64,000 bases of DNA from IMG/VR virus record IMGVR_UViG_3300035492_000037. One strand, written 5' to 3'. Numbering within the stretch: position 1 is the first letter of the stretch; each line of letters starts with the position of its first letter. Shown in pieces: positions 4,631-42,839 of this stretch. The notes beneath the pieces are model-generated. The model did not search any database. It had not been told where the DNA came from and worked only from the letters and a program-made list of their open reading frames with translations. Origin of the DNA: a virus. The translations under genes were made by a program, and so were the position numbers.

Positions 4631-6774
4631 TGGCACAGGCGAAGACCAGCGTCATCATTGATGGCAAAAACAACACCAAGCAGGCGTTCGACGAGGTTAA
4701 TAACCAGATCGAGTCGATGAATAAAAAGCTCTCGGCGGCCGGCAAAGCGCTCAAGGGTGTGTTCACCGTCTCTGCAATAGCCGGCGCAATCCGCGGTATC
4801 GCCAATGCGGCCGACAGCTACAACCTGATGAACGCTCGCCTGAAGCTGGCGACCGAATCGCAGGAAGAGTTCAACACCGCGCAGTCCGAGCTGCGCCGCA
4901 TTGCACAGGCAACGCAGGCACCGCTGGAATCGCTGGCCACTCTGTACCAGCGCGTCAGTCGACCGCTGAAGGAAGCCGGCCGCAGCCAGGAAGAAATTCT
5001 GCAAGTCACCGAGGCTGTTGCGACATCGTTCCGCGTCTCCGGCGCAAGTGCTCAAGAGGCCGAGAACGGCGTGATCCAGTTCGCCCAGGCGCTCGGCTCT
5101 GGTGCGTTGCGCGGCGACGAGTTCAATAGCGTGGCCGAGCAGGCGCCGCGCCTGATGCAGGCGCTAGCCGACTCGCTTGGCGTGCCGGTCGGCGCGCTGA
5201 AGGAGATGGCGGCGCAGGGTGAATTGACGGCTGATGTCGTGACCGATGCCTTGGTCGGCCAGCTCGACACATTGCGGCGCGAGGCAGAGTCCCTGCCGCA
5301 AACCGTAGGTGGCGCGATGACCGAGCTGACCGATAGCTGGAACAAAGCTATCGGCCAGGCGAATGTGCAGCCACTGGTGGATGCGATCAAGTCGCTGTCT
5401 GAGACGCTGAGCGATCCGGTCGTAGTCGATAACCTGGTCAAGCTGGCTTCGGCGCTGGCTACGCTGGCCGGAACGGCTGTGGAGGGAGCTTCAGAGTTCG
5501 TTGATCTTGGCAAGCGCATCGCGTTCGTTGCCGCCAATGCGTCCGGCATGGTGACCGAGCTTGACCAGATCGACCAGCAGATAGCCGACCTCGACCGCAG
5601 CCTGCAGGGTACCGGCCTCAGCACAACCATTGACGGGTTGCTGTTCTCGCCAGAGGAGCTGCAAGCAAAGAAGGACGCGCTGGTTGCGTTCCGCGCGGCA
5701 ATCGTTGCCGAGCAAAGCGGTATGAACGCAGAGCTGCAGGCCGCCGCCGACATGGCAGCGAAAGCGGCGGCAGCTACCCGCCAAGAAGAGGTCAAGGCCC
5801 AGCGTGACTATGTTGCGGCGCTGAGCAGCACGCGCGATGAGTTGGTCAAGCAGGCAAAGGCCGGCGCCAAGCAATTGGTTTCGGCTGAGAAAAGTGCGCT
5901 GTCCGAACTCAAGAAGGTGCGCGATGAAAGGTTGAAGATCGAGGAGCGCTACCGCGAGGCGCTAGCAGGCCTGAATGGTCCTGGCGAGGCCTCCTACGGG
6001 GCTGCGCAATCGCTCAAGGTAGGCGCCCGCGAAGCGCTGCGCGCTGGCGATATCGAAGGCGCCAAGGCGCAGGCACAGGCCGCGCTCAAAATGCTGCAGG
6101 ACCTGGCCGCAGCAGGGGAGAACACCTACGGCTTCGCCGGCTTCATCGGCGAGCTGCAGGATATTGAGCTGGCCGCAAACGACATCGAGAAGAGCAACGC
6201 CGAGGCAAAGATTCAGTCAATCCGCGACGAGATGGCCGCGCTAAAGGAGCAGGCTGACAAGCTCAAGGATGCACCGATCAGCTTCAAGATGGACGAGGAA
6301 AGCCTAAACGGCGTGAAGAGCCAGATTCAGCAACTGGCCGAACAGCTCGGGCAGCAATTGGTGATTCCGGTCAAGGTTGCTGCCAACGACTTCACCCAGC
6401 CCTACACCCTGCAAGATCCCGGCCCCGCGCCGAGCGGCTTCGCCACGGGCGGCTACATCAGCGGGCCTGGCACCGGTACCAGCGACAGCATTCCAGCGCT
6501 TCTCTCGAATGGCGAGTACGTCATTCGCGCGGCAGCGGTGAAGAAGCTCGGCAAGGGCTATTTGGACTGGATCAACCGGGGCCTGCACGTCCCGCGGTTT
6601 GCGGACGGCGGCCTGGTCGGCGCTGTGTCATCGATGCAGCCGCAGCAGGGGCGTGACCTCGGCCGGGTGGACCTCAACGTTGGCGGCGAGTCGTTCTCGT
6701 TCCTCGCCGAGCGCGACCAGTTCGACCGGGTACTGAGCCGCACAAGGGCCAAATTCGGCCGCACTCACGGATAA
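4630..6774 (+). CDS. Tape measure protein
   Basis: 714 aa, Ala-rich and helical; GALRGDEFNS N-terminal tape-measure motif; GFATGGYISGPGTGTSDSIPALLSNGEYV C-terminal motif. Confidence 0.9.
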   Translation: MAQAKTSVIIDGKNNTKQAFDEVNNQIESMNKKLSAAGKALKGVFTVSAIAGAIRGIANAADSYNLMNARLKLATESQEEFNTAQSELRRIAQATQAPLESLATLYQRVSRPLKEAGRSQEEILQVTEAVATSFRVSGASAQEAENGVIQFAQALGSGALRGDEFNSVAEQAPRLMQALADSLGVPVGALKEMAAQGELTADVVTDALVGQLDTLRREAESLPQTVGGAMTELTDSWNKAIGQANVQPLVDAIKSLSETLSDPVVVDNLVKLASALATLAGTAVEGASEFVDLGKRIAFVAANASGMVTELDQIDQQIADLDRSLQGTGLSTTIDGLLFSPEELQAKKDALVAFRAAIVAEQSGMNAELQAAADMAAKAAAATRQEEVKAQRDYVAALSSTRDELVKQAKAGAKQLVSAEKSALSELKKVRDERLKIEERYREALAGLNGPGEASYGAAQSLKVGAREALRAGDIEGAKAQAQAALKMLQDLAAAGENTYGFAGFIGELQDIELAANDIEKSNAEAKIQSIRDEMAALKEQADKLKDAPISFKMDEESLNGVKSQIQQLAEQLGQQLVIPVKVAANDFTQPYTLQDPGPAPSGFATGGYISGPGTGTSDSIPALLSNGEYVIRAAAVKKLGKGYLDWINRGLHVPRFADGGLVGAVSSMQPQQGRDLGRVDLNVGGESFSFLAERDQFDRVLSRTRAKFGRTHG

Positions 6775-6784
6775 CGGAGCCACC

Positions 6785-7294
6785 ATGGCACAACCCACCA
6801 TCATGCTCGGCGGCGTGCCGATCGTGCTGCACGCCGGTGCGCCGGAGGAAAGCATCGGCGCCATCGGCGGCTCTACCGTGCTGCGTATGAGCGACGGCGC
6901 CGGGGTGAAGATGCAGCACTGGCAGCGCTCGGCCGGCAGCATTTCCGGCTCCGGCTGGATGCCGCCAGGCCTCGCCGGGCTGGACTACTCGCAGCCGCTT
7001 GAGCTGCGCAGCACCAAGGTGCTGAGCCACGTTGGCGCCGGCACAGCCTTCACGCTACTCGGCACGCCTCGGCCGGATGTCGCGCCTTGGGCGCATGCGC
7101 TGGTCGGCGATCAGTGGGTGCGCACCGCCTGCACCTACGCCGACGGCGTGGTCACCGTCACCCCTGTGGCCGGCGCCACCCTGTACCAGGCCTGCTACAT
7201 GCCGGTGTTCTCGGTGTTCGCCGAGCCGCCGAGCGAATCGCAGAGCGCCGGCACCGCCACGCACAGCTGGTCGATCAACTGGGAAGAAACCTAA
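6785..7294 (+). CDS. Minor tail protein (distal tail position)
   Basis: RBS GGAG; immediately after the tape measure gene. Confidence 0.55.
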   Translation: MAQPTIMLGGVPIVLHAGAPEESIGAIGGSTVLRMSDGAGVKMQHWQRSAGSISGSGWMPPGLAGLDYSQPLELRSTKVLSHVGAGTAFTLLGTPRPDVAPWAHALVGDQWVRTACTYADGVVTVTPVAGATLYQACYMPVFSVFAEPPSESQSAGTATHSWSINWEET

Positions 7295-39481: not shown

Positions 39482-39951
39482 TCATCGGAATCGACCCTGG
39501 CTGCACTGGCGCCATCGTAGTGATGACCGAGAGCCGCAACTACGTGGCTCACCTCAACATGCCGACCATCAAGGTAGGCACGAAGAGTCGCGTGAACGGC
39601 GCCGCCGTCGCTGCCTTCCTGCGCGAGACGGTCGGGGAGTTCACCGCTCATGCCTATCTGGAGCAGGTCGGCGCCATGCCTGGCCAGGGCGTTTCCTCGA
39701 TGTTCACCTTTGGCCATGCCGCTGGCGTGGTCGAGGGCATCCTTCAAGGAGCGTGCATCCCGTACACATTGGTCACCCCGCAATCATGGAAGAAAAGAGC
39801 GGGCCTCATTGGGGCCGACAAGGATGCTGCACGCTCCCGCGCAATCCAGCTCTACCCGGACCTCCGCATTCTCGACCTGAAAGGGAAGGGGCAAGCGGTG
39901 GCCGACGCCATTTTGATCGCCCGGTTTGGGGCTAAAGGGGAGGCAGCCTGA
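39478..39951 (+). CDS. RuvC-like Holliday junction resolvase
   Basis: IIGIDPG, AYLEQV, FTFG, VTPQSWKK, ADAILIA. Confidence 0.88.
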   Translation: MIIGIDPGCTGAIVVMTESRNYVAHLNMPTIKVGTKSRVNGAAVAAFLRETVGEFTAHAYLEQVGAMPGQGVSSMFTFGHAAGVVEGILQGACIPYTLVTPQSWKKRAGLIGADKDAARSRAIQLYPDLRILDLKGKGQAVADAILIARFGAKGEAA

Positions 39952-41087
39952 TGGCCGCACGCAAAGCGACAGACGACGAAATCAAGGCTGCGCTGACTGG
40001 CCGCACTGTGGCAGAGGCTGCGCAGATCCTCGGGCTGCACGAGCGCAATGTCTACACCCACAAGGCGCGCCTGGCTCGCCAAGGGTGGAGCCCGGAGCAC
40101 GGGCTGAACACGGAGTACCCTGACGGCTTCAAGATGGGCAAGGTTACCATCCAGCGGAACGGGCAGGGCGAGATCGTCAACACGTGGGAGCGGATGTGCG
40201 AGGACTCCGAGCGGCAGATGCAGATGATGCAGAGTGCCATCGAGACGCTGTGCAATCGCGTCCCTGCGGTAGCAAGGAGGAAGGCGGTTGGCAGCTTCGA
40301 CGAAAAGCTGTGCGTTGGATATCCAATCGGAGATCCGCATTTCGGCGAATACATCTGGGGCGCCGAAGCTGGCGGCGATTGGGATCTGACCATAGCGCGC
40401 CAAACCCACATCGACGCCATGGCTGCCCTGGTAGAGGGCGACCCGAGGGCTGAGCGCGGGCTGATCGTCAACCTTGGCGATGTCCTGCACTACGACTCAC
40501 TGATGCCGAAGACGCCGCGCTCAGGCCACATCCTGAACTCGGATGGCCGTTTCTCCAAGATGGTTGACGTGCTGATCGACACGATGGTGACAATGATCGA
40601 GATGGGGCTTGATCGGCACAAGACACTGCACGTCATCAATGTCCAAGGCAACCACGACGAGACGGGCTCTCAGTGGCTGTCCCGTGTGCTGGCTGCTCGG
40701 TTTATCAACGAGCCACGCATCACTTTCGACTTAACGCCAAGCGTCTTCAACTACTACCGCTTCGGCAAAGTTCTGGTTGGCAGTCATCACGGACATTCAG
40801 CCAAGCCGGCAGCGCTCCCAGGAGTGATGGCTGCAGATAGACCTATTGACTGGGGCGAGACCATCCACCGCTACTGGTGGACCGGTCACATTCACCACGA
40901 ATCCAAGAAGGAGTTCCCAGGCGTATCGGTTGAGTCGTTCAACACGGTAGCGCCGGCTGATCCTTATGCCTACAACGCCGGTTACCGCTCGCGCCAGACA
41001 ATGAAGTCAATCGTCCTGCACTGCGAGAACGGAGAGGTATCGAGGCAAACGGTTCATCCGGACATGGTGAAAGGGGTGGCAGCATGA
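39951..41087 (+). CDS. HTH plus calcineurin-like metallophosphoesterase
   Basis: N-terminal TVAEAAQILGLHERNV HTH; GDPH, LGDVLH, GNHD, HHGH, GHIH metal-binding motifs. Confidence 0.8.
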   Translation: MAARKATDDEIKAALTGRTVAEAAQILGLHERNVYTHKARLARQGWSPEHGLNTEYPDGFKMGKVTIQRNGQGEIVNTWERMCEDSERQMQMMQSAIETLCNRVPAVARRKAVGSFDEKLCVGYPIGDPHFGEYIWGAEAGGDWDLTIARQTHIDAMAALVEGDPRAERGLIVNLGDVLHYDSLMPKTPRSGHILNSDGRFSKMVDVLIDTMVTMIEMGLDRHKTLHVINVQGNHDETGSQWLSRVLAARFINEPRITFDLTPSVFNYYRFGKVLVGSHHGHSAKPAALPGVMAADRPIDWGETIHRYWWTGHIHHESKKEFPGVSVESFNTVAPADPYAYNAGYRSRQTMKSIVLHCENGEVSRQTVHPDMVKGVAA

Positions 41088-41629
41088 CCTATCGCAACGT
41101 GGTTTCCGCAGTAGTCCGCGCCCTGGCGTCGGAGGTGATTAACTCGGCTGGTGGGTGTGATTTTGAGCCAAAGGTGCAGGCTGCCCGAGTGCCCGGCGCC
41201 ATCTGCGGCAAGGAAGAGGCGTTCCTGACGGACTGCTGGGTGTTCTCACGCCTGCACACGATGTTGGGCCCTGAGCACTGGCGCGCATTGGTGGCGCAGT
41301 ATTCGACGCACGCCGACCGCAAGCGCATTGCCATCGCTGAGTTGGTCGGCACGATCCAATCCCCGGCGCCGGTTCGGTTCATCAACTGCTGTGTGGTGAC
41401 GTGGGCCTATCCGAAGCTTCCGGGCGCAGAGGGCAAGCGGTCAACCAATGTGCTGCCGGCCGGGTGGTACAACATGGACAACTGGAGCGATGACCCGGTG
41501 CCGGTGAAGACCCAAGAGCGCTGGCGTCGTGACATCCGCAAGGGCTTGAAGCAGGCCGTTGACCAGGCGCTGATCGAGGCGCACGAGATCCTGGCTGCTG
41601 AGGGATTGGTGGCAGGCGAGGCGGCGTGA
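41084..41629 (+). CDS. Late antiterminator Q-like protein
   Basis: Last gene of the nin region before the late promoter; C-terminal helical DNA-binding region. Confidence 0.65.
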   Translation: MTYRNVVSAVVRALASEVINSAGGCDFEPKVQAARVPGAICGKEEAFLTDCWVFSRLHTMLGPEHWRALVAQYSTHADRKRIAIAELVGTIQSPAPVRFINCCVVTWAYPKLPGAEGKRSTNVLPAGWYNMDNWSDDPVPVKTQERWRRDIRKGLKQAVDQALIEAHEILAAEGLVAGEAA

Positions 41630-41649
41630 AATAAATTTGCGAAAGGGCG

Positions 41650-41678
41650 TTGACTAGGAACAGTGTTCCTCCTATAGT
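41650..41678 (+). promoter_or_regulatory. acr operon sigma70 promoter with an Aca1-type operator in the spacer
   Basis: TTGACT (41650-41655), 17 bp, TATAGT (41673-41678); palindrome AGGAAC-AGT-GTTCCT at 41656-41670. Confidence 0.85.
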
Positions 41679-41724
41679 GAAGCCATGCCAGTCAGCCGGC
41701 GCGGCGAAACCAAGGAGAGACACC

Positions 41725-41946
41725 ATGTACGCAGGATACCAAGCAGCAAAAGTCGAGTTTGAAGGCCGCACTGTAGTCGTTGATATGGTGACGATTGGTG
41801 GGCTAGTAGGCGACTGGAAGGCGCGCAGCGAGGAAGACAAGTATTGGATTGGAGACCTGATCGGCTTTAATCGCGCCCTCAGCATGGCAATCGACAGCGA
41901 AGACGGCATTGCTGAATACAAGTCCGTTCGCGTAACTATGCAATAA
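41725..41946 (+). CDS. Candidate anti-CRISPR protein A (73 aa)
   Basis: AGGAG RBS; first gene of the aca1 operon; net acidic. Confidence 0.7.
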   Translation: MYAGYQAAKVEFEGRTVVVDMVTIGGLVGDWKARSEEDKYWIGDLIGFNRALSMAIDSEDGIAEYKSVRVTMQ

Positions 41947-41973
41947 ACAGCATACGATAAAAGGAATTTACAA

Positions 41974-42267
41974 ATGAGCCTCACTCATATCTACAGCGGG
42001 AACGCCTACGAGCATGACAATGTTGACAGTCGCGCCGACCTATCGAAAGCCGCGTCGCGAACGGCTGTTGCTGAGCGAGTGCTGCGCGCAAAGCGGCCGT
42101 TCAGCATGGATGAGCGGCGCTGGAATGAACTGAGCGAGTGGGCGAATCAGCAGATCAATGGCTGCGACTCGCTGCCGCCTATGGCTGTCACTGCCATTGT
42201 TGCGTGCCGGTGGCCTGGCGAGCCCGTGCAAAACAATGGCGTTAGGTCTGAAAGCAACGCCAAATGA
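41974..42267 (+). CDS. Candidate anti-CRISPR protein B (97 aa)
   Basis: AAGGA RBS; ATGA overlap with aca1. Confidence 0.65.
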   Translation: MSLTHIYSGNAYEHDNVDSRADLSKAASRTAVAERVLRAKRPFSMDERRWNELSEWANQQINGCDSLPPMAVTAIVACRWPGEPVQNNGVRSESNAK

Positions 42268-42485
42268 AGCCTGACGCCAGCGCCCGTAACCCCGCCCCGG
42301 ATTATCTCCGGGGTCTCATCGAACAGGCAGGCATATCGCAGCGCGAGGCAGCAGAGCTAATCGGCATCGAGCCTCGCCTGCTGCGGTACTACCTGACGGA
42401 CCCGGCGAGCGGGAAACAGTTTCGAGTGGCGCCGTACCCGGTCCAGTTTGCCCTGGAATGTCTCGCGCCATGCAAAGAGGGTTGA
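42264..42485 (+). CDS. aca1: Anti-CRISPR-associated HTH repressor Aca1
   Basis: PDAS..NP.P.YLRGL…AGISQR.AAELIG…R..RYYL…R.APY.VQFALECLA matches the Aca1 sequence as I recall it almost throughout. Confidence 0.92.
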   Translation: MKPDASARNPAPDYLRGLIEQAGISQREAAELIGIEPRLLRYYLTDPASGKQFRVAPYPVQFALECLAPCKEG

Positions 42486-42511
42486 CAGGAGTGCTCTAAT
42501 GAGCCTAAAGT
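42482..42511 (+). promoter_or_regulatory. Putative late promoter pR'
   Basis: TTGACA at 42482-42487 and TAAAGT at 42506-42511 (18 bp spacer), followed by a terminator. Confidence 0.5.
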
Positions 42512-42559
42512 AAGCCATCCTGTCGATCTTGCGCGTTAAGGAATGACATACAGCACATG

Positions 42560-42599
42560 AAGCCCCGGCACAGAGCAATCTGGTCGGGGCTTTTTTATT
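42560..42599 (+). terminator. tR'-like terminator
   Basis: AGCCCCG…CGGGGCT stem followed by TTTTTT. Confidence 0.7.
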
Positions 42600-42839
42600 C
42601 CCATCGAATTCGATGTGTTTGCGCGAACGGCTGATTAGGGCTCGACCACCCGGCGCCCAATTCAATACATCCGCCATGCCTCTGATCATTTTCCTGGCGT
42701 CACGCAAATGATCATGCACAAATCGCGCGGATTTTCATTCGCCTCACGGCAACCCTCTTCCGGCCCCATGCCTGCCTCCTTGCCCCGAGCGGATCGCACG
42801 CGCATGTGAGGCCGGACCAAACACCAACGAGACTCCACT

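Follow-up and report, generated by a model that had tools for sequence, protein, structure and literature searches.

The operon at positions 41650-42485 of a prophage from a tar-pit metagenome is probably a bona fide anti-CRISPR (acr; CRISPR, short palindromic repeats that are clustered and regularly interspaced) operon of a lambdoid prophage, autoregulated by the anti-CRISPR-associated protein Aca1 and carrying two independent, new candidate inhibitors. We analysed the whole 64,000-nucleotide (nt) stretch of IMG/VR virus record IMGVR_UViG_3300035492_000037, hereafter the window, which comprises two stacked prophages. Only two sequencing runs were found to contain this stretch; both are tar-pit runs, possibly its source, and no RNA run was listed. 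Within the operon, a sigma-70 promoter is followed by two small open reading frames (ORFs), each preceded by a Shine-Dalgarno (SD) sequence, and by an aca1 gene; these and all other stranded features described below for the window lie on the + strand. ORF1 (41725-41946) encodes 73 amino acids (aa) with an acidic isoelectric point (pI) of 4.6, and its SD sequence AAGGAG (41712-41717) is placed seven bases 5' of the ATG. ORF2 (41974-42267; 97 aa, near-neutral pI of 6.7) follows with the SD sequence AAGGA (41961-41965). The ATG of ORF3, the aca1 homologue (42264-42485; 73 aa), overlaps the TGA of ORF2 as ATGA. The initial annotation, made from the sequence alone, had described two small ORFs with good ribosome-binding sites and a 73-aa helix-turn-helix (HTH) gene coupled by ATGA; both descriptions hold, the second by the sequence at 42264-42267.

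Using phmmer, residues 2-68 of ORF3 matched the Aca1 chains of phage JBD30 in the PDB (7c0g, 7fa3 and 7vjn) at an E-value of 4e-21. In addition, 128 records of Pseudomonas phages, DMS3 and MP29 among them, gave tblastn matches with about 63% identity, and in DMS3, MP29 and Spike the matches fall at the gene after the annotated acr genes. The protein also matches phrog_3865 at 2.8e-28. In JBD30 Aca1, bases are read by R44, R47, Y48 and R59, and the DNA backbone is contacted by R22, S31, Q32 and R33 (PMC8633003). The base readers are kept in ORF3 as R38, R41, Y42 and R54, and the backbone contacts as R16, S25, Q26 and R27; V45 and S42 of the JBD30 protein are replaced by L39 and E36, respectively. 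Judged by these similarities ORF3 is a true Aca1 homologue, as had been proposed for the HTH gene. A scan of genomes for close copies of the window Aca1 returned nothing.

The control region of the operon gave a corresponding picture. The promoter (41650-41678) consists of the -35 element TTGACT (41650-41655), a 17-nt spacer (41656-41672) and the -10 element TATAGT (41673-41678). It scored 10/12 in a consensus scan, which found two sites in the region as compared to 0.7 +/- 0.9 in shuffled sequences; taken alone, such a score would be weak evidence of a promoter. What convinces us of the promoter is the alignment of segment 41625-41740 with the promoters of two acr genes, acrIE3 of DMS3 and acrIF2 of MP29; the earlier description of a near-consensus promoter is thereby confirmed. 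Within the spacer, a perfect palindrome (AGGAAC-AGT-GTTCCT, 41656-41670) forms the predicted Aca1 operator. It aligns with the JBD30-type inverted repeat IR2 (AGGCAC-AAT-GTGCCT) in the same 5-3-5 geometry and at the same spacer position. The half-sites of the two differ only at C6, a position of IR2 with a smaller contribution to Aca1 specificity (PMC8633003), and the central spacer base differs as well. The GGAAC half-site of the window recurs in the operator of a metagenomic relative (L020, AGGAAC-AAT-GTTCCT), which documents a natural variant of the Aca1 operator. The upstream copy, IR1, is absent from the window promoter; repression is mediated by IR2 only and not by IR1 (PMC8633003).

The 5' untranslated region (5'UTR) contains a hairpin (41687-41705; GCC-A-GUC-(AGCC)-GGC-GC-GGC) that ends 19 nt before the ATG of ORF1. 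Its minimum-free-energy fold comprises a lower stem of three base pairs, a 1-nt bulge and an upper stem of three base pairs. In energy this fold does not stand out (z = +0.74), and its match to the Aca1-bound RNA motif of acr-aca1 mRNAs rests on position and homology. A survey of 207 acr-aca1 operons described a hairpin just past the transcription start that is bound in vitro by JBD30 Aca1, with three conserved lower-stem pairs, a bulge and a covarying three-pair upper stem, ending about 20 nt before the start codon (PMC13551039); the window hairpin has this same shape. We found the canonical form of this RNA motif (GCC-A-GCC-ACAAC-GGC-GA-GGC) in MP29 and DMS3 and in the metagenomic loci L003, L012, L018, L020 and L022. 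The window and MP29 have in common the sequence that runs from the ribosome-binding site up to the start codon (AAGGAGAGACACC-ATG), and the leaders are homologous. By alignment, the promoter, operator and 5'UTR of the window are homologous to experimentally characterised acr promoters.

The two cargo genes are real coding sequences under purifying selection. Pairwise Nei-Gojobori comparisons among homologues gave ratios of non-synonymous to synonymous substitution rates (dN/dS) of 0.12-0.23 for ORF1 and 0.07-0.43 for ORF2. The proportions of synonymous differences (pS, 0.46-0.82) exceed those of non-synonymous differences (pN, 0.10-0.49), with synonymous sites near saturation. Both ORFs are therefore maintained as proteins. 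Neither matched an entry in Pfam, PHROGs or NCBIfam, a PDB sequence at an E-value of 10 or below, or any of 50,697 phage genomes searched with tblastn, and ORF2 had no match in 72,556 plasmids. An identity with known Acr proteins was rejected within these searches, in line with the initial annotation, according to which neither ORF resembles a described Acr. Relatives exist in small numbers: 11 other clusters in a collection of 5.8 billion proteins for ORF1, and only 8 clusters among 1.84 billion representatives in a profile search for ORF2. These homologues all stem from metagenome or read-archive assemblies and none of them is named; the sole members sourced from NCBI are a divergent, truncated copy of ORF2 (P0015) and an 82-aa copy of it (P0020). 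Pattern scans for both ORFs found nothing in species-representative genomes and in IMG/VR, and a scan of metagenomes added one partial locus (L016). A feature search of the ESM Atlas returned no usable match for ORF1. Literature searches for peptide strings, in full texts and in the supplementary material of León 2021 and Pinilla-Redondo 2020, gave no occurrence, a result that is uninformative because the candidate table of León 2021 lists accessions only. Within the reach of these general searches, ORF1 and ORF2 stand as new orphan families.

AlphaFold2 models, each built from a 5-row alignment, yielded a beta3-alpha2-beta2 arrangement for ORF1 (predicted local distance difference test score, pLDDT, 79) and two long helices for ORF2, which form a helical-hairpin core with conserved termini of low confidence (pLDDT 71). 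The ORF2 family is marked by an N-terminal SGNAYE.DN.DSRAD and a C-terminal RWPGE...NG.R motif. The grand average of hydropathy (GRAVY) is -0.11 for ORF1 and -0.69 for ORF2, and neither sequence contains a signal peptide or a membrane segment. Searching the PDB with these moderate-confidence models, Foldseek returned no hit with an E-value better than 3. Nothing fell below an E-value of 0.5 in BFVD (ORF1 model only) and in the AFDB clusters (both models). Wide VIA-align searches with the same models reached best Z-scores of 3.1 for ORF1 and 4.0 for ORF2. Both the PDZ-like rows of ORF1 (Z 3.1) and the ORF2 rows with helical hairpins (Z up to 4.0) are at noise level, and we did not take them as relationships.

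We then compared the loci in which relatives of ORF1 occur. In L012, L013 and L016, Q (PF06530) is followed by a promoter with an Aca1-type operator and the canonical RNA motif, an ORF1 homologue, a 112-aa protein and an Aca1 homologue. The same cassette lies between an integrase and lysis genes in L018/L019 and L020/L021, where an ORF1 homologue, a protein of 113 or 112 aa and an Aca1 homologue (69 aa) follow; L022/L023 are organized likewise with a 79-aa middle gene instead. Other loci combine the same cargo with different control regions. L001/L002 have another promoter with a palindrome of its own, followed by homologues of ORF1 and ORF2, a 133-aa protein and a KorA-like HTH gene. L004 has a third promoter, an ORF1 homologue, an ORF2 homologue with a C-terminal extension resembling a ribbon-helix-helix (RHH) domain and a MarR-like gene. 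In total, ORF1 was found in seven operon types, and in at least five different acr-aca1 operons with the same operator and RNA motif the gene closest to the promoter is an ORF1 homologue. In these ORF1-led operons the middle gene varies between ORF2, the 112-aa family and the 79-aa protein.

Relatives of ORF2 were found in at least seven contexts. L003, 5' of a terminase gene, carries the RNA motif, an unrelated 60-aa gene, an ORF2 homologue and an Aca1 homologue. In L011, an integrase gene precedes an ORF2 homologue, the stop codon of which is overlapped by an XRE-type HTH gene. L007-L010 represent a small-ORF island in which an HTH gene lies one gene downstream of the ORF2 homologue and another HTH gene at the end, and in L014 and L017 arrays of small ORFs accompany an integrase and KorA/Arc regulators. 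Thus each family occurs without the other, with different partners and regulators, which argues that the ORF1 and ORF2 families move independently; at least three unrelated sets of promoter, operator and regulator drive them. In every context recovered, both families were confined to operons terminated by aca or other regulator genes or to small-ORF islands of mobile elements. Modular shuffling in regulator-terminated mobile operons is the usual behaviour of acr genes. This recurrence in other Aca-terminated operons supports the earlier proposal of two new anti-CRISPR or other anti-defence candidates, with their inhibitory activity being what we infer.

Several of the partner genes deserve mention in their own right. 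In four different acr-aca1 operons headed by an ORF1 homologue, the middle gene belongs to the 112/113-aa family (L012:3893-4231, L016:163-501, L018:3737-4078 and L020:2363-2701; 50-71% identity between the copies). This family matched nothing in Pfam, NCBIfam, the PDB or phage genomes and represents a third candidate inhibitor family. The 79-aa protein (L022:3026-3265) is located in the acr position of a canonical acr-aca1 operon and had no match in the PDB or in phage genomes. The 60-aa protein of L003 (39-221), also in the acr position, had none in the PDB, phage genomes, Pfam or NCBIfam. In L004 (396-833), the ORF2 homologue carries an extension of about 48 residues and is followed by the MarR-like gene. 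The extension had no Pfam match, and its RHH character was read from the sequence alone; the product may be a self-regulating fusion. A swap is seen at the aca1 position of L016 (471-764), where the ends are Aca1-like and the core is exchanged for an unrelated, RHH-looking segment, so that the product may be a recombinant regulator. Between its ORF2 homologue and the KorA-like HTH gene, L001 encodes a free-standing 133-aa protein that is homologous to the AcrVA4 N-terminal domain (6731-7132; PDB 6p7m, E-value 8e-11). The island of L007 (4675-7247; also in L008-L010) is chromosomal, is flanked by an SRAP gene and an integrase gene and comprises eight small ORFs on the + strand, among them the ORF2 homologue, an XRE-type HTH gene (N-terminus MPNHPNR...) and a terminal HTH_31 gene; by its layout it looks like a multi-gene anti-defence operon.

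Taking the evidence together, the balance of our analysis tips towards at least one of ORF1 and ORF2 being an anti-CRISPR. Most genes located directly between an Aca1-controlled promoter and aca1 have turned out to encode type I Acrs (established knowledge; León et al. 2021), and the cassette of the window shares homology with the acrIF2 and acrIE3 promoters. Both points speak against the idea that the Aca1-regulated cargo counters a non-CRISPR defence (restriction-modification, abortive infection or signalling) or a competing phage, which we regard as rather unlikely. This idea draws on the many non-Acr or unannotated genes under predicted Aca control and on Aca proteins shown to repress other anti-defence operons (PMC13551039). 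Neither ORF resembles any known Acr in PDB sequence and Foldseek searches, and ORF2 relatives reside in small-ORF arrays next to integrases and KorA/Arc regulators (L014, L017 and L007), as in general anti-defence islands. Several observations also weigh against an anti-CRISPR function as such. For ORF1 and ORF2, inhibitory activity, target and CRISPR type are all ones that we infer, and their moderate-confidence models yield no mechanistic clue. Fewer than half of 450 genes under predicted Aca1 or Aca2 control have an assigned function, and Aca proteins also control non-CRISPR anti-defence genes (PMC13551039), for which reason linkage to Aca1 alone is no proof of a CRISPR target. The AcrVA4-like neighbour in L001 adds weak support, because AcrVA4 does not need its N-terminal domain to inhibit Cas12a (PMC6711708).

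It is less probable still that ORF1 and ORF2 form a two-part unit, acting as a complex or a sequential pair, instead of being independent inhibitors. They are adjacent and in the same order in three operons with three different regulators (the window, L001/L002 and L004), and this pairing has been kept despite near-saturated synonymous sites. Against this, ORF1 is combined with a 112/113-aa or 79-aa partner in four operon types that lack ORF2, and in L003, L011, L007 and L014 ORF2 stands by itself or accompanies a 60-aa protein. A complex prediction for ORF1 and ORF2 gave a median score of 0.18 as compared to a mark of 0.32, and we used it neither way. Morons outside immunity (superinfection exclusion, host physiology or toxin-like functions) that have borrowed an Aca1 promoter would fit a common lambdoid moron site, the neighbourhood of the late promoter (established knowledge). 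The confinement of both families to Aca-terminated operons or mobile small-ORF islands and the lack of signal peptides and membrane segments in both proteins make such morons very improbable. The weights given to these four readings overlap, that of the ORF1-ORF2 pair with the first two, and they do not sum to one. A bolder version of the anti-CRISPR operon with new inhibitors, to which we lend only limited credence, holds that ORF1 and ORF2 found inhibitor families with new folds, that at least one of them has a mechanism or target new among genes linked to Aca1, such as a CRISPR type other than I-C, I-E and I-F or a defence unrelated to CRISPR, and that their pairing reflects a two-step or dual-target unit.

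For the Aca1-controlled operon with two candidate inhibitors, we propose the following course of events. Upon DNA entry or induction, host RNA polymerase would fire the strong sigma-70 promoter, and ORF1 and ORF2 would be made first, each from its own SD sequence. Translation of aca1 by ATGA coupling would let the repressor accumulate in step with the cargo. An Aca1 dimer would then bind the single operator that fills the promoter spacer and repress transcription; by analogy with JBD30 Aca1, it probably also binds the 5' hairpin of the mRNA and blocks translation. This regulatory part of the mechanism is strongly supported by the homologies described above. ORF1 and ORF2 themselves would most likely act by stoichiometric binding, either to a type I CRISPR-Cas effector or to Cas3, in a gammaproteobacterial host.

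We also examined the genomic position of the operon. Upstream of it we found genes for a RuvC-like resolvase, an HTH-metallophosphoesterase (phrog_704) and P0004 (phrog_3412); downstream, a pR'-like promoter, a terminator, small genes resembling those of lysis regions and a terminase gene follow. P0004 (41084-41629; 181 aa) matches phrog_3412, a family of unknown function, at 1.3e-67 and lies outside the operon in the slot of Q. It belongs to no Pfam family, did not align by BLASTP to the PF06530 Q of L012 and has no relative in the PDB. We therefore call it a Q-slot gene only, a label that is positional; it may be an undescribed late regulator. Directly 3' of aca1, the pR'-like promoter (42482-42511) consists of TTGACA, an 18-nt spacer and TAAAGT (10/12). 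It is followed by an intrinsic terminator (42559-42601), a GC-rich hairpin and a U-run (-33.3 kcal/mol, z = -3.5), which is likely both the end of the acr transcript and a tR'-like element of the late leader. This hairpin and the 15-nt operator were established by folding and by reading the sequence. An Rfam scan of 41500-42750 revealed no family at its gathering score; a match to the abiF RNA motif just 3' of the terminator (42670-42732) reached 29.5 bits, short of the gathering score of 37 (E-value 0.006).

The same arrangement is found in L012, where a phosphoesterase homologue, the true Q (PF06530), the acr operon and a promoter-terminator-leader module that aligns with that of the window follow each other. 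As both loci have the same order, the insertion site between late regulator and late promoter is shared. The initial annotation had placed the operon between Q and pR'. This holds in L012, with its real Q and homologous pR'-tR' module; in the window the position is the same and the presumed Q has no homology to Q. The HTH-metallophosphoesterase gene (phrog_704, 'DNA repair exonuclease') lies 5' of the Q slot in both (window 39951-41087; L012:2030-3205). With regard to the host, the best match of the large terminase subunit (TerL) of the window is from a Xanthomonas phage (77%), whereas the type suggested by Aca1 and the RNA motif is that of the Pseudomonadaceae. The interval from the late-regulator gene to the late promoter of lambdoid prophages constitutes a second genomic niche for acr-aca1 operons, and one that could be mined systematically.

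New Acr families still come mainly through guilt by association with aca genes, and each of them has so far either revealed something new about mechanism or supplied CRISPR tools with an off-switch. The acr-aca1 operon type is known; what is new here are two orphan cargo families, not a kind of system. In all, the analysis yielded these two candidate families and three further partner families (112, 79 and 60 aa), all of them small, absent from cultured-phage databases and without detected fold relatives. If the proposed function is true, ORF1 and ORF2 offer new inhibitors of bacterial immunity that can be put to the test.

The closest characterised systems are the Casadabanvirus operons acrIF1-aca1 of JBD30, acrIF2-aca1 of MP29 and acrIE3-aca1 of DMS3. 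They share with the window a terminal aca1, an operator in the promoter spacer, a 5'UTR RNA hairpin and small cargo genes, as well as a near-identical SD context, but the cargo proteins of the window are unrelated to theirs. Further differences are the half-site, GGAAC instead of GGCAC, the missing IR1 and, in the hairpin, a G-U pair in the upper stem and a 4-nt loop. While the Casadabanvirus operons reside in the head-gene region of Mu-like phages, the window operon is found in a lambdoid prophage, with the Q-slot gene on one side of it and the late promoter on the other. The ORF2 homologue of L004 resembles, by its RHH-like C-terminus, self-regulating fusions of the AcrIF24 and AcrIIA15 type, whereas ORF2 of the window has no DNA-binding domain; Acr-regulator fusions of this kind, AcrIF24 and AcrIIA15, have been described (PMC9638941, PMC10901769), and Aca14 is an RHH regulator (PMC13551039). 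Most similar overall are the metagenomic acr-aca1 operons (L012/L013/L016, L018-L023 and L003), which have the same cassette, a member of the ORF1 or ORF2 family at 54-71% identity and a three-gene layout. In these operons, the middle or first gene is swapped for a 112/113-aa, 79-aa or 60-aa gene. Most of these metagenomic operons lie between integrase and lysis cassette at a prophage end, unlike that of the window, and in place of the phrog_3412 gene of the window L012 carries a true Q (PF06530).

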